DNA of 64,000 nucleotides, from assembly GCA_040397235.1 (NCBI GenBank), contig JBBAWH010000001.1:243640-307639 (forward strand), in the 5' to 3' direction. The first letter of the stretch is position 1, and each line of letters starts with the position of its first letter. Made by a program: the position numbers and the translations under genes. Under the pieces are notes generated by a model. The model was not told where the DNA came from. It searched no databases and saw only the letters and a program-made list of their open reading frames with translations. Shown piece after piece: positions 3,197-49,469 of the stretch. This stretch comes from Candidatus Limnocylindrus sp. (lineage in GTDB: Bacteria; Chloroflexota; Limnocylindria; Limnocylindrales; Limnocylindraceae).

Positions 3197-5101
3197 TCAG
3201 CCACGATCCGCGCCGAGGGCCGATAGGATCCGTGCGGCAAGGGCATCATCTACCCCTGCGACCTCGGTGAGAGCCTCAACGGGGGCGGCGGCGATCCCCG
3301 CCGCTGATCCGAACCGACGCAGGAGCGCCTTTCGCTTCGTTGGGCCGAGCCCACGGATGCCGTCGAGCCGGCTCGCCGTCGCCGCTCGACTGCGCAGCGT
3401 GCGGTGATAGCCGATCGCAAACCGATGTGCCTCATCGCGAAGCCGTTGCAGAAGGCGCAGCCCAGGATCGGTGGCGGGGAGAAGAATCGGCGCGGAGGCG
3501 TCGCGCGGCCAGAGCTCTTCGCGCTCCTTGGCAAGACCGACGAGAGGGATTGTTAAACCTGCAGCATCCAGAACGGCGGCGGCGGCAGAGACCTGCCCGC
3601 GACCACCATCGATGACAAGAAGGTCGGGCAGGCTCCAAGCGCGTAACTCAGCCTCACCACTCCGTTGGGTCCCATCCGCCACGGATCGGGCGAAGCGACG
3701 CGTGAGCGCTTCCGCGTGTGCCGCGAAGTCATCCTGCCCAGTCACCCCCTTAATACGGAAGCGGCGGTACTCCTTCGGCGCAAGCTGACCCTCTTGTGCC
3801 ACGGTTAGCGACGAGACGGTGAATGCTCCCTGAATAGTGCTCACATCGACGCACTCAATGCGCGCCGGCGATGCATCGAGGTTGAGCGCGACGGCGAGCG
3901 CTGAGAGCGCCGCGTCGGCACGCTCACGATCGGCGTCCTCTTCGGCCTCGCGACGAATGAGCCACTCCTCTGCGTTGCGTTCGGCCAGCCGCAGGATCCG
4001 CGCCCGATCACCACGCTGCGGCACGCGCATCTCAACGCGACCCTCGCGACGCGCCGAGAGGAACTCAAGGATCTCCGGGTCACTCCGCTCTGCAGCAGTC
4101 GCAATTGAGGGTGGGATCTCGCCTGCACGTGCGTAGTAGCTTGCAGCAAAGCCTGCGAGGAGCTCTGAGTCACCTGAATCCCCAGCCTCCACTCGATGCA
4201 CATCGCGTCCCACCAGTGCTGAGTCACGAATCTGGAAACAGGCGATGGCAATGTGGCGTCCGTGGCGAGCGATCCCCAGCACATCCTCGTCAGGTCGCCC
4301 TGAGGTCGGCACCTTCTGTTCGTCAAACGTTGTCTCTAGGGAGAGCACCGCATCGCGGATACGCGCGGCGTCTTCAAACGCTTCGCGCTCGGCGGCAGAC
4401 TCCATGCGTGTGGTGAGCATGGTGATGGCGGCGCGGGAGCGACCACCGAGGAAGAGTTGCACCCCGTCAATCTCACGCTGGTAGTCGGCCACCGGGATGT
4501 TGCCGAGGCAGGGGCCCTGGCAGCGCTTCAAGTCATAGAGGAGACAGGGGCGCTCTAGTGCGCGCTCCATCGGCTTGATTGAGATCTCGCAGGTGCGAAA
4601 TTGAAAGAGGCGCTTGATCGCCTCCATGGCAGCATTCACCGAACCGGGTGTGGTGTATGGGCCGAAGTAGCGTGAGCCATCGCGCACGAGTCGCCGAGTG
4701 CGCTCCACACGTGGATACGGATCTGCCGTGACGCGAATGTAGGGGTAGCTGCGATCGTCACGAAGACGGATGTTGTACTTGGGGAGATGCCGCCGCACGA
4801 GTGTGGCCTCGAGGAGGAGCGCCTCCTTCGTGGAGTCGGTGACCGTCCAGTCAAGTGTGGCAACCTCTGCAATCGCATCGCGAATGCGGTGTGCGCCTGG
4901 CTCCCCACCCGCCTGCCAGTAGCTGCGAACGCGTTTGGTGAGGTGCGTCGCCTTGCCGACGTAGATGATCTTTCCTGCACTATCCGAGAAGAGGTAGACA
5001 CCGGGCGCGTCAGGGAGAACCTTGAGCGCCGCCGCGATTGCGTCGGGGACGCTTGGCGCCGGGAGCCGCTCAGGCGCCATCACGCGCCCCAGTACGACCA
5101 C
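3197..5101 (-). CDS. uvrC: Excinuclease ABC subunit C
   Basis: GIY-YIG N-terminus (PGVYLFSDSAGKIIYVGKA..RVRSYW), UvrBC-interaction and C-terminal HhH regions, 634 aa. The start could also be the Met at 5080. Confidence 0.9.
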   Translation of the reverse strand: MVVLGRVMAPERLPAPSVPDAIAAALKVLPDAPGVYLFSDSAGKIIYVGKATHLTKRVRSYWQAGGEPGAHRIRDAIAEVATLDWTVTDSTKEALLLEATLVRRHLPKYNIRLRDDRSYPYIRVTADPYPRVERTRRLVRDGSRYFGPYTTPGSVNAAMEAIKRLFQFRTCEISIKPMERALERPCLLYDLKRCQGPCLGNIPVADYQREIDGVQLFLGGRSRAAITMLTTRMESAAEREAFEDAARIRDAVLSLETTFDEQKVPTSGRPDEDVLGIARHGRHIAIACFQIRDSALVGRDVHRVEAGDSGDSELLAGFAASYYARAGEIPPSIATAAERSDPEILEFLSARREGRVEMRVPQRGDRARILRLAERNAEEWLIRREAEEDADRERADAALSALAVALNLDASPARIECVDVSTIQGAFTVSSLTVAQEGQLAPKEYRRFRIKGVTGQDDFAAHAEALTRRFARSVADGTQRSGEAELRAWSLPDLLVIDGGRGQVSAAAAVLDAAGLTIPLVGLAKEREELWPRDASAPILLPATDPGLRLLQRLRDEAHRFAIGYHRTLRSRAATASRLDGIRGLGPTKRKALLRRFGSAAGIAAAPVEALTEVAGVDDALAARILSALGADRG

Positions 5102-5417
5102 GGAGTGCCTCGCGGCGATTCAGGATGCGCAGGATCTCGTCGAGCGCCTCGCGGAGCTCGATCACCGCCTCACCAGAGGCGATATCGGCAAGGCCATTCC
5201 CTGGCCCAAGGGCGGCGCGGACGGCCACAACACCCTTGCGCAGCGCTGCTCCGTGGGCGTCGCGGAGCTGCGTCGTCCAGGCGCGGTACGGCAGGAATCT
5301 GGCTCGGGCGCGTTCGTCACTCAGCTCATCAAGGATTCGCTCAAGGAGTTGCGCCGCGCGCAGTCCGGCTTGGTCGAGTGCTGGATCGGCATGTCGAGGG
5401 AGGTGCGCCTCAGCCAT
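5070..5417 (-). CDS. Hypothetical small helical protein (115 aa) between uvrA and uvrC
   Basis: The ATG lies 2 nt after the uvrA stop, with a GGAG Shine-Dalgarno 5 nt upstream. It fills an otherwise 318-bp gap in a very compact operon. I recognise no homology. Third-position GC is lower than in neighbouring genes, so coding status is uncertain. Confidence 0.3.
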   Translation of the reverse strand: MAEAHLPRHADPALDQAGLRAAQLLERILDELSDERARARFLPYRAWTTQLRDAHGAALRKGVVAVRAALGPGNGLADIASGEAVIELREALDEILRILNRREALRGRTGARDGA

Positions 5418-5419
5418 CG

Positions 5420-8329
5420 CTACTCCAGCGAGTGGATCGGCTCGCCCTTCAGCGCAAGGGCGAGATAGCGACCGGTATGGCTGCGCTTCACCTTTACAAC
5501 CTGCTCAGGCGTCCCCTCTGCGATGAGTTCGCCACCGCGGCTTCCGCCGTCGGGTCCAAGATCGATCACCCAGTCTGCGGTCTTGATCACATCAAGGTTG
5601 TGCTCGATCACGATGACGCTGTTGCCGCCATCAACAAGTCGATGCAGAACATGCAGCAGGCGATCGACATCGGCGAAGTGCAGCCCCGTGGTTGGCTCGT
5701 CGAGGATGTACATCGTGCGGCCGGTTGAGCGACGGGCTAACTCTGTGGCGAGCTTGACCCGCTGCGCCTCGCCGCCCGAGAGCGTCGTTGCCGACTGCCC
5801 GAGGCGGAGATAGCCGAGGCCCACCTCGCTCAGCGTCTTGAGGCGATTACGAATCGCGGGCACTGCGAAGAAGCGCTCGAGCGCATCCTCCACCTGCAGC
5901 TCCAGCACATCGGCAATCGTCATCCCCTTCCAGGTCACCTCGAGCGCCTCGCGGTTGTAGCGCTTCCCCTGGCACGTTTCGCAGGGCACGTACACGTCGG
6001 GGAGGAACTGCATCTCAATCTGCAAGATGCCGTCGCCAGAACAGGTCTCGCAGCGGCCACCCTTGACGTTGAAGGAGAAGCGGCCGGCCGCATAGCCGCG
6101 GAGGCGTGCCTCTTGCGTGGCGGCGAAGAGCTCGCGGATCGGCGTGAAGAGACCGACGTAGGTGGCAGGATTCGAGCGCGGCGTACGGCCGATTGGGCTC
6201 TGGTCAATCTCAATCACCTTGTCGATCTCGTCGAGGCCCGTGATCCTATCGTGCGCCCCTGGTCGCTCTTTCGCGCCGTGCAACCTGCGCGCGAGCGCCT
6301 TCTGCAGGATGTCGGTGACGAGGGTGCTCTTGCCGCTCCCCGAGACGCCCGTCACGGCAACGAATTCGCCGAGCGGGAAGGCGACGTCGATCTCGCGCAG
6401 GTTGTGCTCCCGCGCCCCCTTGACCGTGATCGCCTTGCCACTCCCCTTGCGGCGCGTCTTCGGCACCACCACCGAGCGGTCACCACGAAGGTAGGCGCCA
6501 GTAATGGAGTCCTTCGCTTCAAGGAGCTCCTTGAATGTGCCGTTGGAAATCAAGCGACCGCCATGTTCGCCTGCGCCGGGTCCAATATCTACGACCCAGT
6601 CGGCCGTACGAATCGTCTCTTCGTCATGCTCAACCACCAGCACCGTATTGCCGAGGTCGCGCAGCCGAATCAGCGTGGCGATCAGGCGAGCGTTATCACG
6701 CTGGTGCAGGCCGATCGATGGCTCATCAAGGATGTAGAGGACGCCGACCAACCGTGACCCGATCTGCGTTGCCAGGCGAATGCGCTGTGCCTCGCCGCCC
6801 GAGAGCGTGGTAGCAGAGCGATCAACGGTGAGATAGTCGAGGCCAACGTCAACGAGGAAGCCGGCGCGCTCACTGATCTCCTTAATCACCGCCTTGGCGA
6901 TCGTGCGTTCGCGCTCACCGAGCGCTTTGGAGAGGGTGTTGATCCACGGCACCAGCTCGCCGATCGGCATGGAGGCTACTTCAGCAATATTGCGCCCGTC
7001 CACGCGTACGGCGAGGATCTCAGGCTTCAGGCGGCGACCCTTGCAGTCGGGGCAGGGCCTACTCACCATGTAGCGCTCAATCTCTACGCGCACCAACTCT
7101 GATTCCGTCTCTTTGTGTCGGCGCTCAAGGTTCGCGATGATCCCCTCAAAGGCAGCCTTATAGGTATTGCTGTAACTCGAGTTCTCGTAGGTCACCGTGT
7201 AGCGATCCTCACGCTCGGCGTGCAGCAGGTAGTCGAGTGCACCCTTCGGGAGATCGCCCAGCGGCGTCTTGGGATTCCACTTGTTCGCCTTCATCGCTGC
7301 AGTGACCACTTTCAAGTACCAGCTCCCCTCTGGTGAGCGGGACCACGGGATCAAGCCGCCGGTGAGCACCGACTTCTCTGGATCAATCACGCGCTCCTCG
7401 TCGACCTCAAGGCGGAAGCCGAGCCCGGTGCAGGTTTCGCAGGCGCCGTGCGGGGAGTTAAAGCTGAACGAACGCGGCTGCAGGTCGTCGATCACCGTAC
7501 CGTCGTAGGCGCAGCCGAGCTTCTCGCTGAAGAGTCGCTCTTCAAAGGCTGGCTTCTCTTTCTCGGCTGGGGCGGGGGCAACAATGGCGAGTCCCTCTCC
7601 CAGTTTGATCGCCGTCTCTACAGAGTCGGCGAGTCGGCTGCGATCAGGGATCGGCAGAGGCTTCCCCTTCTCATCCACGGGATGCTGGACAACAAAGCGA
7701 TCGACGATGACTTCAATGGAGTGGCGCTTCTTCTTGTCGAGCTTCGGCAGATCATCGGCACTGAGATCGTACTGGACGCCATCAACGCGCACGCGGCTGA
7801 ATCCGGACTTTCGCGCCGCCTCATACATGCGCTCCCCCTCGCTCTTGCGATCGCGAAGGAGTGGGCCAAGCACGAGGATGCGTGTGCCGTCAGGGAGCTT
7901 GAGGATCTCTTCAACGATCTGGTCGAGCGAGACGCGACTGATCGGACGGTCGCACTTTGGGCAGTGCGGGGTTCCGGCACGCGCGTAGAGGAGTCGAAAG
8001 TGGTCCCAGATCTCGGTGATCGTGCCGACGGTCGAACGCGGATTGCGCGACGACCCCTTCTGGTCAATAGAGATGGCTGGCGAGAGGCCATCAATGGAAT
8101 CGACGTCGGGCTTCTCCATCTGCCCAAGGAACTGGCGTGCGTAGGCGGAGAGGCTCTCGACGTAGCGGCGCTGACCTTCGGCGTAGATCGTGTCGAAGGC
8201 GAGGCTCGACTTACCCGAGCCAGAGATGCCGGTGACAACGACGAGCTGGTCCCGTGGAATGTCGAGGTCGATTCCCTTGAGGTTGTGCTCGCGGGCGCCG
8301 CGAACGGAGATCTTGTTCTGTCCCACCAC
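5420..8329 (-). CDS. uvrA: Excinuclease ABC subunit A
   Basis: 969 aa with two ABC ATPase modules ([12 protein letters not shown] / [11 protein letters not shown]) and zinc-finger CxxC pairs. The start codon overlaps the uvrB stop. Confidence 0.95.
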
Positions 8330-18324: not shown

Positions 18325-18410
18325 GCCGAAGTGGCGAAATGGCAGACGCAACCGACTCAAAATCGGTCGACTGAAAGGTCATGTGGGTTCGACTCCCACC
18401 TTCGGTACCA
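18325..18410 (+). tRNA. tRNA-Leu (anticodon CAA)
   Basis: GCCGAAG acceptor stem pairing with CTTCGGT, anticodon loop CTCAAAA, a long variable arm, T-arm GTGGG-TTCGACT-CCCAC, discriminator A and encoded CCA. Confidence 0.85.
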
Positions 18411-18437: not shown

Positions 18438-18524
18438 GCCGAAGTGGCGAAATGGCAGACGCATCCGACTTAAAATCGGCCGGTCGATGAGATCATGCGG
18501 GTTCGAGTCCCGCCTTCGGCACCA
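18438..18524 (+). tRNA. tRNA-Leu (anticodon TAA)
   Basis: Near-duplicate of the upstream tRNA-Leu, with anticodon loop CTTAAAA, a long variable arm, T-arm GCGGG-TTCGAGT-CCCGC and encoded CCA. Confidence 0.85.
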
Positions 18525-37321: not shown

Positions 37322-37348
37322 TTAGCACTCGAGGGCTTAGAGTGCCAA
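37322..37348. promoter_or_regulatory. CIRCE operator (HrcA binding site) upstream of groES-groEL
   Basis: TTAGCACTC-N9-GAGTGCCAA matches the CIRCE consensus TTAGCACTC-N9-GAGTGCTAA with one mismatch. It sits ~75-100 nt upstream of the groES ATG. Confidence 0.75.
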
Positions 37349-38200
37349 CTCCAAGCGTGGAGGAGCGCCGCTCCCGCGTGGAAAGATGCGGTCAAAGTTC
37401 TCCGCAATGGCGCGAGCGAGCGGCTCAATCGGCTCGCCGCGACGCTCCGCGATCCACGCCAGGGTCAGGGCGACATTGGCCGGCTCATTGCGGTGCGGAT
37501 CTGGCGCCCCCGGCATCGTCAGCCACGGTGCGTCCGTTTCGGTCAACAGGCGATCGGGTGGAATCAACGCGACCCACTCCCCGGTCGCCGACTCCTCAGG
37601 CCGGAAGGCGAGTCCAGAGATGGAGACGGCCCCGCCGAGCGCGAGTGCCTCCTCGACGTAGGCGGCACTCCCCGAGGCACTGTGCAAGATGAAGGGGACC
37701 CGCCCACCGAACGCCTTGGCACCGCCAGGCGCGCCGATCGCCGAGCGCTTGAGCGTTGCCAGGAGCTCTCGCTGTGCCTCATCACCATAATTAAGCGAGC
37801 GGCAGTGCAGGATCAGCGGCTTGCCGAGTGCCGCTGCAACATCGATGTGCGCCTCGAGGTTTTCGATCTGAGCTGCGAGCGGCGCGAAATCGCGCTTGGT
37901 GTCGATCCCCGTCTCGCCAATGGCCACCACACGCGAGTCGACCGCGCGCGCGAGCAGCGCATCGCGCCCTGGAGCATCGGTTACGGCCGTATAGGGGTGG
38001 ATGCCAATCGCGAGGTCGGCCCACGGCAGATCTGGAGCGATCCGAAAGGCCCCCTCAGAGCTCTCGATGCCGTACGACGGAATGAGGAGTCGGACCACTC
38101 CCGCGTCGCGTGCGCGCGCGGCTACCTGCTGGTAGTCATCGTTAAAGCGATCGGCCTGGAGGTGCCCGTGTGCGTCAGTCAGCAGCGGCATCGAGCGCAT
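37337..38200 (-). CDS. tatD: TatD-family metal-dependent DNase/hydrolase
   Basis: 287 aa. The N-terminal LTDAHGHL histidine motif and TIM-barrel hydrolase pattern are present. It overlaps the 3' end of metG, the usual metG-tatD pairing. Confidence 0.85.
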   Translation of the reverse strand: MRSMPLLTDAHGHLQADRFNDDYQQVAARARDAGVVRLLIPSYGIESSEGAFRIAPDLPWADLAIGIHPYTAVTDAPGRDALLARAVDSRVVAIGETGIDTKRDFAPLAAQIENLEAHIDVAAALGKPLILHCRSLNYGDEAQRELLATLKRSAIGAPGGAKAFGGRVPFILHSASGSAAYVEEALALGGAVSISGLAFRPEESATGEWVALIPPDRLLTETDAPWLTMPGAPDPHRNEPANVALTLAWIAERRGEPIEPLARAIAENFDRIFPRGSGAPPRLELAL

Positions 38201-39800
38201 CAGCCTCTAGTCGTGGGAAGAGTGGCTCTGGTGCGCCGAGTGGCCCGGCTGCACCGAGTGCCCCCCATGCGCCGATCTCGTCGAGCGGCGGACCGTTGTG
38301 CCCGTTCGCGTCGTACGGCCAGTTTCGACCGAGCAGCGTCCAGATCTTCGCGGCGATGCAGGGCATCACCGGTGCGGCATAGAGGGAGATAAGGCGACAC
38401 GACTCGAGAAGATCACCAAGCACGCAGCGGAGCTTCTCCTCCGCCGCAGCATCACCGAGTTTCGCTGCCTTCGCGAGCTCCCACGGCTTCTCGCTATCGA
38501 CAAACTTGTTTGCCACGCCGACGAACCCCCAGAGGGCGCCAAGCCACTCATGCAGCGCGTTGCGCTCCAGCGCCGCGATCGCCTCGCGTCGCGTCTCCTC
38601 CCAAGCGGCACCGAGGGTTGATGCGGCTGCCGGGCGCGGGAGCGGCGCATCGGTGAAGGCGCGGCTCGCCAGCGTGGTTGCGCGGTTCACCAGGTTGCCG
38701 AAGTCATTGGCAAGTTCAGAGTTGTAGCGGCGAATGATGGAGTCCCAGCTCACGTCGCCGTCGCGATCAAACGGCACCTCGCGCAGCGCAACGAATCGTG
38801 CGCCATCAGCGCCGAGCGCGGCGACCGCATCATCTGGGTCAAGGAAGTTGCCACGGCTCTTGCTCATGCGCTCGCCGCTGGAGAGGAGCCACCCGTGCAC
38901 CCAGATCTTCTTTGGTGCCTCAAGCCCTGCGCTCCACAGCATCGCTGGCCAGAAGACGGAGTGGAATCGATTGATGTCCTTGCCGATGATGTGCAGATCG
39001 GCGGGCCACCATGGCGCGCCAGCAGCCTCCGCCGGGAAGCCCGCGCCAGTGAGGTAGTTGATCAGGGCGTCGTACCAGACGTAGATGGTCCCGGCCTTCG
39101 GGTCACCCTCCCCCGTTGCGGTCAGCGCGCTGCTCCCATCTTCATGAATGGGGAATGGAATCCCCCACGTTGCCCCTTCGCGGCTGATCGAGAAATCTTC
39201 CAACCCCTGGCGGACAAATCCGAGCATCTCGTTCCGTCGATATTCGGGCTGCACGGGCGATGGATCCTGCGTCAACCAGGCCTCAAGACGCTTTTGGTAG
39301 GCGCTGAGTCGGAAGAACCAGTTGCGCTCAGTCAGCCACTGCAGCGGGATGCCAAGATGGTTGGGGCAGACGGTCTTGTCGCCCTCCTTGACCACGTCAT
39401 CAGCGTTGCGGAACCCCTCGTTGGGGCAGTACCAGCCTTCATAGCTACCGACGTAGATGTCTCCAGCTGCAAACGAGCGCCGAACCATCTCCTGCGCGGC
39501 AAGGGTGTGGTCCGCGTCGGTGGTGCGAATGAATCGATCGGGGCTAATCAGCAGCTTCGCCTCGCTCACTTGGAAGAGGGCGACCTTGGCGTCAACGAAG
39601 GCCTTCGGTGTCACCCCCTCCTCTGCAGCGCGGGCGGCGATGTTGACCGAGTACTCGTCCGTACCGGTCAGGAAGCGCACCTCGTCGCCGCGCATACGGC
39701 GCCAACGGGCGATGGCATCGGCGCCGATCACCTCATAGAGCGTGTGCAGGCCAGGCTTGTTGTTGGCATACGCGATGGCTGTCGTTAGGTAGTACCGCAT
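38175..39800 (-). CDS. metG: Methionyl-tRNA synthetase (short, class without C-terminal tRNA-binding extension)
   Basis: The conserved start MRYYLTTAIAYANNKPGLHT (HIGH-type motif region) is at 39800 and a KMSKS motif (RMSKSRGN) is present. The ORF track start at 39926 is an upstream in-frame extension. Confidence 0.9.
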   Translation of the reverse strand: MRYYLTTAIAYANNKPGLHTLYEVIGADAIARWRRMRGDEVRFLTGTDEYSVNIAARAAEEGVTPKAFVDAKVALFQVSEAKLLISPDRFIRTTDADHTLAAQEMVRRSFAAGDIYVGSYEGWYCPNEGFRNADDVVKEGDKTVCPNHLGIPLQWLTERNWFFRLSAYQKRLEAWLTQDPSPVQPEYRRNEMLGFVRQGLEDFSISREGATWGIPFPIHEDGSSALTATGEGDPKAGTIYVWYDALINYLTGAGFPAEAAGAPWWPADLHIIGKDINRFHSVFWPAMLWSAGLEAPKKIWVHGWLLSSGERMSKSRGNFLDPDDAVAALGADGARFVALREVPFDRDGDVSWDSIIRRYNSELANDFGNLVNRATTLASRAFTDAPLPRPAAASTLGAAWEETRREAIAALERNALHEWLGALWGFVGVANKFVDSEKPWELAKAAKLGDAAAEEKLRCVLGDLLESCRLISLYAAPVMPCIAAKIWTLLGRNWPYDANGHNGPPLDEIGAWGALGAAGPLGAPEPLFPRLEADALDAAAD

Positions 39801-39935
39801 CGTGGGCGATTGTCGCAGAAGAGCGCGCCCCCAGCGCGATACGCCGGCAGTATCCGCACCGTGGGAGGGTGCCAGAGCAGGCGTACGGCTCCTGCGGGTC
39901 ACGTGATCCGGGCCGCCGCCGCACAAGGAGGCGCA

Positions 39936-40331
39936 ATGAACAAGGTCATGCTCGCTGGCAGGATTACCAAGCCCGTCGAATTGAGAACGCTCCCCTCAGG
40001 CTCCAAGGTCGCGGTGGGGAACTTCGCAACCCATGACTTCCGCGGCGGCGAGGAGCGCACGGAGTTCCATCGGCTCGTCTTCTGGGAGAAGCTCGCTGAG
40101 ATTGCCGCCGCCCATCTGCAGGCGGGATCGCTCGTCAGCATCGATGGCCGCCTTAAGACCCACGAGTGGGAGAGCGAAGGGTCGCGCCGCTGGATGACCG
40201 AGGTGATCGTGAATCGCCTGGAGTTCCTCGGGCCAAAGCCGCAGTCCGGTGACCCGGTGGCACAAGGGTCAGAGCCGACTGATCTCGGTGAGGCCGAGTA
40301 CGGCGAGGAGATCGCGCCAGTTCGCGCCTAG
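39936..40331 (+). CDS. ssb: Single-stranded DNA-binding protein paralog lacking the acidic C-terminal tip
   Basis: ATG preceded by AGGAGG. The OB fold reads MNKVMLAGRITKPVELRTLPSGSKVAVGNFATHDFRGGEERTEFHRLVFWEKLAE... The C-terminus ends ...EAEYGEEIAPVRA, without the canonical DDDIPF. Confidence 0.8.
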   Translation: MNKVMLAGRITKPVELRTLPSGSKVAVGNFATHDFRGGEERTEFHRLVFWEKLAEIAAAHLQAGSLVSIDGRLKTHEWESEGSRRWMTEVIVNRLEFLGPKPQSGDPVAQGSEPTDLGEAEYGEEIAPVRA

Positions 40332-41278
40332 CTCTCGTCGTCGACGCTCTCTGGTGCCGTGTCGTCATGGGCGAGGTTCCAGAGGCGTCGACGTTCAAGC
40401 CCCCACAGGGTGGCGATACGTCGAATCGCCGCGCTGCGCGACTCACCCGCCGTCACAGCGCGCCCCACAAGTTCGAGTGCTGCCGCATATGGGCCCTCGG
40501 GATCATCGGTGTCAGGTAGATCTGCGGCCGCCTGCGCACCGACAACGATGACGAACTCACCGCGCGCATCAATCTCCCCCGCACTCACCGCCGCTGCGAG
40601 TTGGCCGAGGGTGCCGCGGCGAATCTCCTCGTGCAACTTCGTGAGCTCGCGACAGATTGCCCCCACGCGGTCGTCGCCGCACACGCGCGCCAGATCGACC
40701 AGTGTCGCGGCCACACGCGGCCCCGCCTCATAGATCACGGTACCGCGCTCATCAGAGGCGATGGCACCAAGCACCTTGGTTCGGTCGACGCCACTCCGCG
40801 GCAGGAAACCTTCAAATGACCAGCGTGGGCCAGTGACGCCCGCTGCGACAACCGCCGCGAGGAGTGCGGATGCGCCGGGGATAGGGATCACGCGGATCCC
40901 TGCAGCGACCGCAGCGGCGACGAGCGTTCCCCCTGGGTCACTGATCAGGGGCGTGCCAGCGTCGCTGATCAGCGCGATGGCGGTGCCAGACAGCAGCCGG
41001 GCAATGATCGGCGCAACTCGGTCGGCCTCATCAAAACCTGGAAGGGCCGTCACCTCTGTCTGCACGCCAAAGCTGGCCAAGAGCGGGCGAGAGACACGCG
41101 TGTCTTCGGCAACGATCAGTCCAACCTCGCGAAGCACAGCCGCTGCACGCGGCGTGAGATCGGCGAGATTACCGATCGGGGTAGAGACGATATGCAACGC
41201 CCCAGGCGTTGCGCCACCGCCGCGCAGGTCCTCAGTCAAGCTTCGGGCGCCGCCGAGGGTAGAGATAGTCGCTTCCAC
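40328..41278 (-). CDS. rsmI: 16S rRNA (cytidine1402-2'-O)-methyltransferase RsmI
   Basis: ALHIVSTPIGNLADLTPRAAAVL..., a tetrapyrrole-methylase-fold N-terminus typical of RsmI. The annotated start overlaps nadE by 47 nt, so the true start may be a downstream non-ATG codon. Confidence 0.85.
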   Translation of the reverse strand: MEATISTLGGARSLTEDLRGGGATPGALHIVSTPIGNLADLTPRAAAVLREVGLIVAEDTRVSRPLLASFGVQTEVTALPGFDEADRVAPIIARLLSGTAIALISDAGTPLISDPGGTLVAAAVAAGIRVIPIPGASALLAAVVAAGVTGPRWSFEGFLPRSGVDRTKVLGAIASDERGTVIYEAGPRVAATLVDLARVCGDDRVGAICRELTKLHEEIRRGTLGQLAAAVSAGEIDARGEFVIVVGAQAAADLPDTDDPEGPYAAALELVGRAVTAGESRSAAIRRIATLWGLERRRLWNLAHDDTAPESVDDES

Positions 41279-42095
41279 TGCTCCGCCCCCCCACCTTTGC
41301 GATTGGCGGCATCTGGCGCTTGAACTCCGATCGACGAATCATCTCACTCACCCGTGAGACAAATTCGCGATCAAAGCCCTCCGCAATCACGTCTTCAAGC
41401 GGAAGGCGACGATCAACGATGCGGTGGAGCACGCGATCAAGGGTTGGGTAATCAAATCCACCCTCACCCTCGTCGGTCTGACCCGGCCAAAGATCGGCGC
41501 TCGGCGCCTTCTCAATGATCTGCGTCGGCACGCCGAGGTGGCGCGATAGCTCGCGTACCTGCGTCTTGTATAGATCGCCGATTGGGTTGAATGCCGAGGC
41601 GGCATCGCCGAAGATCGTGGAGTAGCCGATCAGCATCTCGCTCTTGTTCCCCGTGCCGACCACTACCCCACGGTGCTGGGCTGAGCGGTCATAGAGCGTG
41701 GCCATTCGCAATCGTGCCGCCATATTCCCCCGACGCACTGGGGTTACGCTCTCGCCCGCGGGCAGGTTCGCGATGAGTGCCGCCAACGGCGCCTCAATTG
41801 AGATGAGTTCACTCTGACAGCCGAGGTCGCTCACGATCGCCTCGGCATCAGCCCTCGAATTGGGCGATGACGCTGCGGTTGGCATCAGCACAGCCACCAG
41901 ACGATCTGCGCCGATGGCTGCGGCGGTCAGGTAGGCAACCAGCGCGGAGTCAATGCCGCCGGAGAGGCCGAGGAGAACTCGCTCGGCGCCGGTGCTCGCC
42001 ACGTGCGAGGTGATGAAGGAGCGGCACATGGCCGCGACCATCTCGGGGTCAATCGCGAGTTCGTCGTGAGGTGCACTACCGCTCTCGCCTCTCAT
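41232..42095 (-). CDS. nadE: NAD+ synthetase, synthetase (ATP pyrophosphatase) subunit only
   Basis: 287 aa with the PP-loop LGLSGGIDSALVAYL. It has no fused nitrilase domain. Confidence 0.85.
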   Translation of the reverse strand: MRGESGSAPHDELAIDPEMVAAMCRSFITSHVASTGAERVLLGLSGGIDSALVAYLTAAAIGADRLVAVLMPTAASSPNSRADAEAIVSDLGCQSELISIEAPLAALIANLPAGESVTPVRRGNMAARLRMATLYDRSAQHRGVVVGTGNKSEMLIGYSTIFGDAASAFNPIGDLYKTQVRELSRHLGVPTQIIEKAPSADLWPGQTDEGEGGFDYPTLDRVLHRIVDRRLPLEDVIAEGFDREFVSRVSEMIRRSEFKRQMPPIAKVGGRSSGSDYLYPRRRPKLD

Positions 42096-42103
42096 TAGGT
42101 TGC

Positions 42104-43003
42104 CTATGCCTCCTCGAGGCCGGCGCGGGTGGCGATGATGCGGTCGTATTCGCGGCGCGTCAGCTCCAGACGCTCATCACGCAGGAGTGGAAGTGCGGTG
42201 CGGGCGCGTGCCACCTCGTCAAGATCGATCTCGGCAAGGAGAAGCGCCTCTTCGAAGAGGGGCGCCTCTGCGAGCACGACACCGTCGGGTCCGATCACGC
42301 GCGAGCCGCCCCAGAAGATCAGTGACTCATCGACGCCGACCCGATTCGTGAAGGCAACATAGGAGGTCGTGAGCGCCGCGGTGGCACGAAGCAGGGTGCC
42401 CCAGGATGCTGCGGAGCCAAGCCCCTGATCGGCATCCACGCTTGCGCCGCGCGCTGGCCCCGCCGCCACGTTGATGAGGAGCTCGGCCCCATCCTGCGCA
42501 AGGATCGATGGCAGCGTTGGATGCCAGAAGTCCTCGCACACACCGATGCCGATTCCGACATCGCCCTGAACCGCTGATCCACCAAGGGCCGCTCGGGTCG
42601 CGCGAATCGCATCGCCCGCCGCGAGGAAGCGTCGCTCATCAAAGAGTCCGTACGTTGGTAGATAGCACTTGCGCGCCACATGTCGCACCTCGCCACCCTC
42701 TAGTAGGGCGGCGGCGGCAAAGAGTCGATGGTCATCGGTTGACTCAACAAATGAGACAACCGCAGAGGGGCCGCCGCTCGTGAGCTTTGCCAGCGCTTGG
42801 AGGCGTGGATCGCTGCGTCGCATCGCAACCTCTGGCGCGAGGTCTTGCAGTTGATACCCGGTGAGGCCGAGCTCGGGAAAGATCACAAGATCGGCGCCCG
42901 CGGCACGAGCCTCAGCGATCTTCGCTTGATGCAGGGCGAAGTTCTGCGCGAGGTCACCAAGTGCCGGGGCGATTTGCGCGAGGGCGAGCACTCTGCGTCG
43001 CAT
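42104..43003 (-). CDS. Carbon-nitrogen hydrolase of the NadE-glutaminase type (separate polypeptide)
   Basis: The E-K-C triad contexts FPELGLTGY, RKCYLPTYGLFDERRFLAAGD and GIGVCEDFWHP closely mirror the glutaminase domain of fused glutamine-dependent NAD synthetases. It ends 8 nt before nadE. Confidence 0.8.
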   Translation of the reverse strand: MRRRVLALAQIAPALGDLAQNFALHQAKIAEARAAGADLVIFPELGLTGYQLQDLAPEVAMRRSDPRLQALAKLTSGGPSAVVSFVESTDDHRLFAAAALLEGGEVRHVARKCYLPTYGLFDERRFLAAGDAIRATRAALGGSAVQGDVGIGIGVCEDFWHPTLPSILAQDGAELLINVAAGPARGASVDADQGLGSAASWGTLLRATAALTTSYVAFTNRVGVDESLIFWGGSRVIGPDGVVLAEAPLFEEALLLAEIDLDEVARARTALPLLRDERLELTRREYDRIIATRAGLEEA

Positions 43004-43009
43004 CAGCCC

Positions 43010-44944
43010 CTACTTTTGCAAATCCCACGTGTGGATCGACCACGCGTATAACGGGCTTTGCACATCTGCTGTTTTCGTCGCCCAGGTAAAGCGGTTCCGA
43101 AGTAGTGCGTAGGAGGGATCCCCCCAGAGGAGGAGATACGGCCGCTCGCTCCGCCGGAGCGATTGAATGGTGGCGTAGATACCGACGCGCGAGCTAATGC
43201 TCCCGGCTGAGACGCCTTGGGCCAGGAGCTGATCGACGCCCGAGCTCGACCAGCAGACGAAGTTCTTCCCAGCCGGTGCCTCTTCGGTTGGGCAGGCGCT
43301 GGAGGCGAAGATATCCGAGTCATCGGGATCAAGGCCCCACTGCCACGCGCCGAGATAGAGATCAAAGTCGTTTGGGTAGCGCAGCCGTGGCGCGATGTCC
43401 GTGGCAAACGGAAGCTCGGCGACGGCGAGCGAGATGCCGCACTCAGCAACCTGGTCAACGATCAGCTGGGCCGCACGGGTTCGCGCAACCTGGCCCTCCC
43501 GAACGATGATGTCAGCCTCAAGTCGCGTGCCGGCGCGAGCGAAGACGCCATCCTCACCTGCGACCCATCCGTCGGCAATGAGCGCGGCGCGTGCACCAGC
43601 GACATCGCGCGTGGCCTCTGCTGCGGCGGGGTTTTCAGCCGCCCACGAGGTTGGCGCCACGGTGCTGGAGATCTTGATCCCGGTCTCATCTGTTGCGCCA
43701 GTGATGATTGCTGGCAGGTCGACGCACGAGGCGAGGGCGCGGCGGATAACGCTGCTGGCGAAGAGGCGCCCTTCGCGTGTATTGAACGCAAGGTAGTTGT
43801 AGCCGCGAAGCGACGCGGTGTGGAGCAGCGTGGCGTCGTCGCTCACGGTCAGGCCAGCAACATCTGCGGCTCGAAGGTCAGGGGCCCAATCAATCGCACC
43901 CCCTTGAAAGGCCTTCAGCACACCGGCGGGCGATGCAAAGACCGTCAGGGTCATCGCCGACATCGGCGGCTCGCCAAGGGCGAATCCCTTGAAGGCGGCG
44001 AGCTGCACGAAGGTACCGGGCACACGCTCGACGAATTCGTACGGCCCAGCGCCGATAGGTGCGCTCTGTACGTCGAGAAGTAGGAACGCGGCGCCAAGCT
44101 GCCCTTCAGTTGGTGCGAGGAGTAGTCCCTCCAGCGCAGCCAGCCGCACGTAGAGCGCACGTGCGTACTGTTCGTCGTCGCGGCTCCCCGTCGGCTCGCC
44201 AGTGCTGCTGAGTTGCGGATAGCCGCGTGGGTCTGGCAGATCAAGGCCAGCGTCGGCAAGGGTGCGCTCCAGCTCGGTGACGCGCGATGCATAGGTGCAG
44301 TTTGTCCCCCCCGAGGCGGCGCATCCGCCGCCGTCAATATCGGCGGCAATGTTCTCGCGGGTCAGGGAGACCGCATTGCGATCTGCCGCTTGAACCTTGG
44401 CTTGGAGTCGAGCCAGTGATGCGGTGAGCGTGCCCTTGGGGAGGATTGGGATGGTGAGTCCGCGTGTCTGCCAGGGTGCCCATGGCGACTTCAAGGTGAA
44501 GGTGAGCGCACCGTCTGCCTCCGCCTCCACAGAGGCCAGGTGGTTCCCGACCACGGCGCAAATGTCGCTCACAAGCGGACAGCGCGTTGAGGCTCCAAGT
44601 TCATAGGTAAAGATCACATCGTCGGTGGTGAGTGGCGACCCATCGTGGAAGGTGAGCCCCGAGCGCAGTGTGACGCGCCATTTCGTGCCACCTGCCGCAC
44701 TCGAGGCGTCGCCATCGGCGAGCACCGGGGTTGGCGCGAAGGCGGCATCGGCGCGGTAGAGACCAGCGTGGACCATGGAGCCAACGAGGGCGGAGGCATC
44801 GTCGGAATAGGCGAGCTCTAGGCCGGCGGGCTCACCGACGATCCCCACCTTCAGCGTGCGACTGGAGATGACCGTGCAGCCAGCGAGCAGGGTTGCCGTT
44901 AAGAGAGCTGCCGCAAGGAACTTTAGGCCCCGATGCATCGGCAT
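43010..44944 (-). CDS. ABC transporter substrate-binding lipoprotein, family 5 (peptide/nickel/opine type), with no adjacent permease or ATPase genes
   Basis: 644 aa with a lipobox LLAGC after the signal peptide and a family-5 SBP fold pattern. GAGGGGAG lies upstream of the ATG. Confidence 0.8.
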   Translation of the reverse strand: MPMHRGLKFLAAALLTATLLAGCTVISSRTLKVGIVGEPAGLELAYSDDASALVGSMVHAGLYRADAAFAPTPVLADGDASSAAGGTKWRVTLRSGLTFHDGSPLTTDDVIFTYELGASTRCPLVSDICAVVGNHLASVEAEADGALTFTLKSPWAPWQTRGLTIPILPKGTLTASLARLQAKVQAADRNAVSLTRENIAADIDGGGCAASGGTNCTYASRVTELERTLADAGLDLPDPRGYPQLSSTGEPTGSRDDEQYARALYVRLAALEGLLLAPTEGQLGAAFLLLDVQSAPIGAGPYEFVERVPGTFVQLAAFKGFALGEPPMSAMTLTVFASPAGVLKAFQGGAIDWAPDLRAADVAGLTVSDDATLLHTASLRGYNYLAFNTREGRLFASSVIRRALASCVDLPAIITGATDETGIKISSTVAPTSWAAENPAAAEATRDVAGARAALIADGWVAGEDGVFARAGTRLEADIIVREGQVARTRAAQLIVDQVAECGISLAVAELPFATDIAPRLRYPNDFDLYLGAWQWGLDPDDSDIFASSACPTEEAPAGKNFVCWSSSGVDQLLAQGVSAGSISSRVGIYATIQSLRRSERPYLLLWGDPSYALLRNRFTWATKTADVQSPLYAWSIHTWDLQK

Positions 44945-44966
44945 CTCCCCTCTCGCTCTCTCGTGG

Positions 44967-44982
44967 ATCGGCAGGTGCCGAT
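44967..44982. promoter_or_regulatory. Perfect 7-2-7 palindrome ATCGGCAGGTGCCGAT upstream of the SBP gene
   Basis: An inverted repeat 23-38 nt upstream of the SBP start codon, in the 100-bp gap after the NUDIX gene. It could be an operator or a weak terminator. Confidence 0.25.
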
Positions 44983-45046
44983 CTCTCCACAGGATAAGGG
45001 TTTGCCGTGCACTTTTGTGGCGGAGCGACCCGCCCGCACGAATCGC

Positions 45047-45496
45047 CTATGCAGCGAGGGCCGCGTAGGCGCGCTCAACGAGGCCGCACTCTGTCTGGAA
45101 GTCCAGGAGGGCAATCGCCTCATCCATCGGCACCCAGCGCACCTCGTCGAACTCTTTATCCCACTGATCGAACGAACCGCCGATCGCTTCCATCAGGTAG
45201 TAGTGCACCGTTTTGTCGATGCGCTCCCCGCCGCGCGTAAACGAGTAGTGAATGGCATCAAAATACGAGAGGATCTGCACCTCAAGGCCCGTCTCTTCGC
45301 GCACCTCGCGAAGCGCCGTCTCCTCTCGGGTCTCACCCTCTTCAGGGGTCCCCTTCGGAAGTGACCAGATGAAGCCGTCGCGCTCTCGACGACGGCGTCC
45401 AATCACGATCTCTGGCCGGCCGCCGACACCTCGAATGACGAGGCCTCCAGCCGACATTGCGCTGCGGCGTGTTGCTCCCATGCGCTGCTCCCTCAC
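45047..45496 (-). CDS. NUDIX hydrolase
   Basis: 149 aa with the Nudix box GTPEEGETREETALREVREETGLEV (GX5EX7REUXEEXGU). Confidence 0.8.
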   Translation of the reverse strand: MREQRMGATRRSAMSAGGLVIRGVGGRPEIVIGRRRRERDGFIWSLPKGTPEEGETREETALREVREETGLEVQILSYFDAIHYSFTRGGERIDKTVHYYLMEAIGGSFDQWDKEFDEVRWVPMDEAIALLDFQTECGLVERAYAALAA

Positions 45497-45645
45497 CTTA
45501 CCGATGGACGGGCGGCCGGGGCCGTACCCGCAATTGAGCCGATGGTAGCCCCCGCAGCGGCGGCGCGCTGCTCAGGCGCGGGGCGCTACTCTAGTGGCAC
45601 GCGTGGCGACGCAGCAGCAGCCGCGCACAACAGAGGGGAGGGCCC

Positions 45646-48342
<2,697 letters not shown>

Positions 48343-49392: not shown

Positions 49393-49469
<77 letters not shown>

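Follow-up and report, generated by a model that had tools for sequence, protein, structure and literature searches.

Split NAD synthetases (NADS), in which a glutaminase (G) subunit and a synthetase (S) subunit are encoded by separate, clustered genes, were defined as 'type C' and verified biochemically by De Ingeniis et al. (2012; PMC3376133). In Thermus thermophilus HB27, TTC1538 (S) and TTC1539 (G) co-purify at about 1:1 as a tight complex that uses glutamine, and TTC1538 alone uses ammonia only (PMC3376133). According to the same study, what sets two-component, glutamine-utilising enzymes apart from single-component ones within the same branches of the tree is an extended C-terminal loop; Table S3 of that paper gives Alicyclobacillus and Geobacter as genomes with adjacent G and S genes, and its supplement places Chloroflexi among the groups holding Thermus-cluster enzymes. 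Here we establish, for a G and S gene pair from Candidatus Limnocylindrus sp. (Chloroflexota; assembly GCA_040397235.1), how the genes are arranged, to which families they belong, that their catalytic and signature residues are conserved, and that their synteny is conserved. The pair lies in a 64,000-nucleotide stretch of contig JBBAWH010000001.1 (positions 243,640 to 307,639 of the forward strand), hereafter the window, to which all coordinates of the pair and its neighbours refer. It very probably encodes the two subunits of a type C (clustered), glutamine-using NAD synthetase. An earlier note, made from the letters of this DNA, had proposed such a split enzyme, and its reading is supported by the family ranking of G, the catalytic triad, the synteny of the two genes and the C-terminal loop of S.

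The G gene (42104–43003, minus strand) has an ATG start and a TAG stop and encodes 299 amino acids, identified as a stand-alone nitrilase-superfamily glutaminase. The S gene (41232–42095, minus strand) also starts with ATG and encodes a 287-amino-acid, single-domain NAD synthetase, NadE. Both were delimited from the listing of open reading frames (ORFs) and assigned with Pfam, NCBIfam and PDB. They lie head to tail, and an 8-nt spacer (42096–42103, minus strand), read directly from the sequence, separates the stop of G from the start of S; the ORF coordinates and the sequence thus agree with the adjacency and the gap described in the earlier note. The distance from one start to the other is 908 nt (908 mod 3 = 2), which puts the genes in different reading frames, so that fusion by stop-codon read-through is impossible. 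Joined end to end, the two products come to 586 amino acids. The gene order repeats the domain order of fused enzymes, as had been pointed out before, with G matching positions 6–247 and S positions 269–537 of the 546 positions of the fused NAD+ synthase model PRK13981. Between the two genes a site scan found neither a promoter-like nor a terminator-like site, and it gave nothing above shuffled expectation; the scan is informative solely on the absence of an internal terminator. No second copy of either gene was present within the 64-kb window.

The position of G among the nitrilase branches was assessed by ranking profile scores. G matched the Pfam CN_hydrolase family at 4.2e-39, and its top NCBIfam model was PRK13981 (145 bits, 2.7e-42), followed by PRK02628, the model of M. 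tuberculosis-type fused enzymes (96 bits), and by N-carbamoylputrescine amidase at 87.5 bits. Scores stayed below the curated cut-offs of the other nitrilase branches, namely aguB (TIGR03381; 87.5 against 410 bits), deaminated glutathione amidase (63.6 against 355) and archaeal nitrilase (42 against 500). The three best PDB matches of G were all fused NadE entries (5kha, 3n05, and 4f4h). The same ranking held for the family, represented by an alignment of 48 diverse G members on which the conservation counts for G are based: PRK13981 was matched by all 48, with a best family E-value of 7e-53 compared with 3.6e-36 for the next non-NadE family. Searched against the PDB, the G family profile scored 208 bits with 5kha, 154 with 4f4h and 150 with 3n05, and no more than 138 with other nitrilase-fold enzymes. 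The suggestion that the hydrolase follows the glutaminase domain of NadE rather than generic nitrilases is therefore upheld by both the model scores and the structure matches.

All of the motifs quoted in the earlier note were located, those of G (FPELGLTGY, RKCYLPTYGLFDERRFLAAGD and GIGVCEDFWHP) starting at residues 42, 111 and 152, and that of S being the SGGIDS motif described below. Residues were mapped by HMMER alignment to M. tuberculosis NadE, with residue roles taken from PMC6946656. The catalytic triad consists of Glu44 in FPELGLTGY (codon 42872–42874), Lys112 in RKCYLPTYGLFDE (42668–42670) and the nucleophile Cys156 in GVCEDFWHP (42536–42538), all on the minus strand; they align with Glu52, Lys121 and Cys176 of the M. 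tuberculosis enzyme and were invariant in 48 of 48 members. Seven further residues of that enzyme, Tyr58, Tyr127, Phe130, Glu132, Glu177, Phe180 (Trp179 in human) and Pro204, are named as glutamine-binding or tunnel-constriction residues (PMC6946656). Their counterparts in G are Y50, Y118, F121, E123, E157, W160 and P183, respectively, and these glutamine-site and tunnel-entrance equivalents were each kept in 39–48 of the 48 members. The YRE-loop equivalent spans residues Y118 to E123, C-terminal to Lys112. The alignment to the fused M. tuberculosis enzyme that had been recommended thus yielded a conserved triad and conserved glutamine-site residues, and the accompanying search for tunnel residues found the entrance equivalents Y50, Y118, F121, E123 and P183 conserved in G.

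The C-terminal segment of G (residues 268–299; 42104–42199, minus strand) carries R268 followed by the motif PLLRDER..L, which is kept across the stand-alone family. The segment is alignable to the C-terminal region of 5h8i, an N-carbamoylputrescine amidase, and gave no HMMER alignment to the fused NadE structures of about 550 amino acids. The motif may serve nitrilase-type dimerisation or docking of S.

The S product matched the Pfam family NAD_synthase (PF02540) at 8.5e-77 and scored 302.9 bits with the NCBIfam single-domain NadE model PRK13980, which exceeds the cut-off of 255; its match to the C-terminal half of PRK13981 scored 221 bits. Its best PDB matches were 3p52, 1xng, 2e18 and the S-domain of the fused enzyme 3n05. 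The PP-loop ATP-pyrophosphatase motif SGGIDS was found by motif search at residues 45–50 (41946–41963, minus strand), and in an alignment of 21 syntenic, concatenated G and S pairs its residues S344, G345, G346, D348 and S349 (concatenated numbering) were invariant. The single-domain structures 3p52, 1xng and 2e18 stop at S residues 263–267, whereas the fused 3n05 could be aligned through residue 280. S therefore runs about 20 residues past the ends of the single-domain structures, aligned with the C-terminal loop of 3n05. This extension (residues 264–287, PIAKVGGRSSGSDYLYPRRRPKLD; 41235–41306, minus strand) corresponds to the published signature of glutamine-utilising NADS (PMC3376133, Table 2). 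In 56 partner S-subunits from other loci the tail was strongly conserved as FKR..P.IAK[LV]S.RT.G.D[FY].Y.R(DWG/RRP), with the motif IAK.S.RT.G.D[FY].Y.R kept in all 56, which, with the alignment to the 3n05 loop, indicates that the glutamine-utiliser signature is present in S. Residues ∼225–263 of S aligned with branch IV/V and fused structures, whereas alignments to E. coli/B. subtilis-type enzymes ended near residue 224; this pattern of alignment extents is consistent with the presence of alpha-18, one of two S-domain helices (the other being alpha-9) associated with type C enzymes.

Synteny was examined in 80 loci encoding G homologues, obtained from a scan of one genome per species. They came from Chloroflexota (Limnocylindria, Anaerolineae), Acidobacteriota, Methylomirabilota, Poribacteria, Dormibacteraeota, Alicyclobacillus, Geobacter, metagenome-assembled genomes (MAGs) labelled as Planctomycetes, and others. 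In 62 of the 80, a same-strand NadE homologue lay downstream of G. Four loci ended too early to judge, and among the 76 informative ones the NadE homologue was within about 460 nt of G in 60. The gap between the two genes had a median of -1 nt, and a 4-nt overlap of stop and start was seen in 17 of 56 ORF pairs from other species, which suggests translational coupling. Near-identical relatives in independent assemblies (NCBI and Logan) showed the same two-ORF layout, with a separate ATG for S and the 8-nt gap. The recurrent synteny and the independent assemblies together exclude both chance adjacency and assembly artefact.

When 1.84 billion cluster representatives (50% identity) were searched, 263 G clusters were returned at E<1e-30. 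Among the best 150 of these, nearly all were stand-alone proteins of about 275–310 amino acids matched end to end, and the few longer proteins among the clusters were not G–S fusions. Matches at >91% identity comprised more than 100 clusters of stand-alone G proteins of 298–302 amino acids from many samples; such matches are too close for phylogeny, and diversity was judged from the 50%-identity search. At least 579 matching stretches were found among species-representative genomes, the closest being Limnocylindria MAGs at about 60% identity. The split arrangement is thus common among uncultured Chloroflexota, occurs commonly in several further phyla as well and is not limited to a few cultured species, and the earlier description of it as rare has to be dropped.

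Like the Thermus type C enzyme, the window pair combines a nitrilase-like G protein encoded by its own gene with a single-domain nadE in a putative operon, and its S subunit has the extended C-terminal loop. It differs in coming from an abundant uncultured Chloroflexota lineage. The Alicyclobacillus and Geobacter loci in our set (L073, L050, and L042), genera already recorded as having adjacent subunit genes, carry the same G family in the same synteny as the window pair; the likeness to TTC1538/TTC1539 is indirect, being drawn from these shared type C genera and from the published description.

The closest sequence relatives of G are the fused NadE enzymes of about 550–590 amino acids (PRK13981; 5kha of Acinetobacter baumannii, 4f4h of Burkholderia thailandensis and 3n05 of Streptomyces avermitilis). 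They share with the window pair the order of G before S, the triad, a total length close to that of the joined subunits, and a related C-terminal loop, 3n05 ending in ...TKISAKGFGKDRRLP. Unlike them, the window encodes two polypeptides in different frames, whose scores with PRK13981 (given above for G and S) both lie below the cut-off of 479 bits, and S is at least as close to the single-domain 3p52 (177 bits) as to the S-domain of 3n05 (160 bits). The octameric NadE enzymes of M. tuberculosis and human (∼680 amino acids; 3dla, 6ofc, and 6ofb) are far more distant: the G family profile scored 97 bits, and S could be aligned over residues 37–186 only. The triad, the aromatic residue and glutamate of the YRE loop, and the equivalents of Tyr58 and Pro204 are nevertheless kept in G, and the ammonia-tunnel concept is applicable to the window pair. 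The coupling residues specific to the M. tuberculosis enzyme are not kept in G, where Arg128 corresponds to Gly119 and Glu129 to Leu120. Type N, ammonia-dependent NadE (for example that of E. coli, B. subtilis, H. pylori, and M. jannaschii) has the same single-domain PP-loop fold as S (PRK13980) but neither a G partner nor the extended C-terminal loop, both of which are present in the window pair.

For complex formation, glutamine use and channelling we infer from T. thermophilus and from the literature on fused enzymes how the pair might work. The two genes would be co-transcribed, with translation probably coupled, and their products would assemble into a tight hetero-complex in which the C-terminal loop of S (264–287) docks S onto G. 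Glutamine would be hydrolysed by G through a thioester on Cys156, with the triad Glu44–Lys112–Cys156. The ammonia released would enter an inter-subunit tunnel whose predicted entrance is formed by the YRE-loop equivalent together with Y50 and P183. The PP-loop of S would adenylate nicotinic acid adenine dinucleotide (NaAD), and ammonia would then attack NaAD-AMP to give NAD+. An AlphaFold2 prediction of G and S joined end to end, run with no alignment, was unusable (mean predicted local distance difference test score, pLDDT, of 35.8; predicted template modelling score, pTM, of 0.24), and no structural conclusion is drawn from it. The earlier note had called ammonia channelling in this arrangement poorly characterised. 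In structural terms this stands, as no solved split G/S complex occurs among the PDB matches of G, S or the G family profile, and we found no later open-access paper that describes how the split form is built or works; the arrangement itself, however, had already been published and verified biochemically (PMC3376133).

Several observations weigh against a two-subunit, glutamine-using enzyme. The margin of the G family profile over generic nitrilases is just 12–16 bits for 4f4h and 3n05 and is large for 5kha only, and M. tuberculosis-type NadE ranks beneath several generic nitrilases with the same profile, so that sequence similarity is good but not overwhelming evidence. The Thermus complex still prefers ammonia over glutamine by about 50-fold (PMC3376133), so that the main nitrogen donor in vivo may be something other than glutamine. 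Finally, 14 of the 76 informative loci have a G homologue without NadE within 4 kb. The ammonia preference and the G homologues away from nadE also suit an alternative in which NadE is an ordinary ammonia-dependent enzyme and the CN hydrolase an independent amidase (omega-amidase-like or carbamoylputrescine-amidase-like) that shares its operon, with no complex or channelling between them. It would fit as well with S passing the single-domain cut-off, with the annotation of its best PDB matches as ammonia-dependent, and with the significant E-values that G also has against aguB and further nitrilase families. We consider this alternative unlikely. It does not account for the G-then-S order on the same strand, kept across many phyla with stop/start overlaps, nor for the best scores of G falling on NadE G-domains when the cut-offs of other curated families are not approached. 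It is further opposed by the C-terminal loop that S shares with fused and two-subunit enzymes and that is missing in single-domain structures, and by the tight binding of the Thermus G and S proteins to each other.

If the pair is indeed a split NAD synthetase, the stand-alone G family may still amount to more than a divided fused enzyme. It may form a heteromeric assembly with a tunnel or regulation unlike that of the fused enzymes, one example being reversible association of G and S that switches between ammonia and glutamine according to nitrogen status. We regard this as doubtful; room for it is left by the large, coherent, phylum-spanning G clade, by the sharply conserved, clamp-like C-terminal S motif IAK.S.RT.G.DF.Y.RDWG, and by the finding that about one-fifth of informative genomes carry G away from nadE.

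The nadE-remote loci bear on another possibility, that G is a shared ammonia-donating subunit serving NadE plus at least one other amidotransferase or partner, with adjacency to nadE as one context of several. The 14 loci concerned (L023, L025, L031, L035, L043, L047, L052, L053, L057, L066, L069, L079, L081, and L082) encode G homologues 38–48% identical to the window G. In four of them (L023, L035, L043, and L052), of which two are labelled Promineifilaceae, one is labelled Anaerolineaceae and one Chloroflexota, the product of the gene following G has GTPase motifs and looks Era-like by eye. Against a shared subunit, the genes adjoining G across the 14 loci are an assortment of housekeeping genes among which no amidotransferase recurs, and the 2012 survey, which found the same 'remote' (type R) class, read it as NADS subunits encoded apart (PMC3376133). 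The 14 loci probably belong to this type R class, and a role of G as a shared subunit appears very improbable.

A fused nadE interrupted by a frameshift or sequencing error, which would make the split an artefact or a pseudogene, can be effectively dismissed as already refuted: the joined length is near that of fused enzymes such as 3n05 (590 amino acids) and the reverse artefact does occur (see below), but the two-ORF layout is repeated in the independent assemblies, the stand-alone length of G recurs throughout the clusters, the 56 ORF pairs from other species are likewise split with variable gaps, and S satisfies a full-length single-domain model.

One apparent natural G–S fusion was considered and rejected. 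In the uncultured Chloroflexia MAG MFD00392.bin.2.85 (locus L005, contig CAVYGH010000013.1), a 611-amino-acid ORF (3986–5821 of that locus) joins the two parts through an Arg-rich 'linker'. In the other frame this stretch encodes the conserved C-terminal G tail of sister genomes (…DGFDVA…) and ends in an ATGA overlap with nadE. The fusion is thus the product of a 1-nt frameshift, and the indel is probably a long-read assembly error.

Directly downstream of nadE lies an RsmI-like methyltransferase gene (40328–41278, minus strand; Pfam TP_methylase, 8.8e-25). As called, it has a GTG start and overlaps the 3′ end of nadE by 47 nt; alternatively, translation may begin at a later TTG, which would overlap the nadE stop by just a few nt. 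An RsmI-like homologue followed nadE in 21 of the 80 loci (Chloroflexota, Poribacteria, Dormibacteraeota, and Acidobacteriota), and the gene is probably in the same transcription unit as nadE. We know of no functional link between the two. On the other side, a gene for a family-5 solute-binding protein of 644 amino acids (43010–44944, minus strand; Pfam SBP_bac_5, 1.8e-46) ends 6 nt upstream of G, and this short gap makes a common transcript with G probable. The solute-binding protein was rejected as a functional partner of G, since the two genes are linked in near-identical relatives only and the 80 more distant loci all lack the linkage.

The wider neighbourhood (37337–48342) is of housekeeping character, with genes for a TatD-like protein, MetRS, SSB (on the opposite strand), the RsmI-like protein, NadE, G, the solute-binding protein and a NUDIX hydrolase. 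A long plus-strand ORF (45646–48342) is suggested to encode aconitase by the Pfam calls on the matching gene of a syntenic relative (L001). The immediate neighbours of the pair did not include a PII (glnB) gene; linkage of nadE with glnB is reported for some bacteria (PMC7196632). An Rfam scan at gathering thresholds found three tRNA genes (18325–18407 and 18438–18521 on the plus strand, 49396–49469 on the minus strand) and no riboswitch or other structured RNA besides these in the 64-kb window.

The kind of enzyme described here is already known, biochemical work published in 2012 having confirmed what genome context had predicted; given the description of type C in T. thermophilus, the split-synthetase reading is correct and not new. 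The value of the finding is modest and lies in annotation and distribution. G, which source databases label merely as 'predicted amidohydrolase' or 'hypothetical protein', could be named as the glutaminase subunit of an NAD synthetase, and the type C arrangement is widely distributed beyond cultured species.

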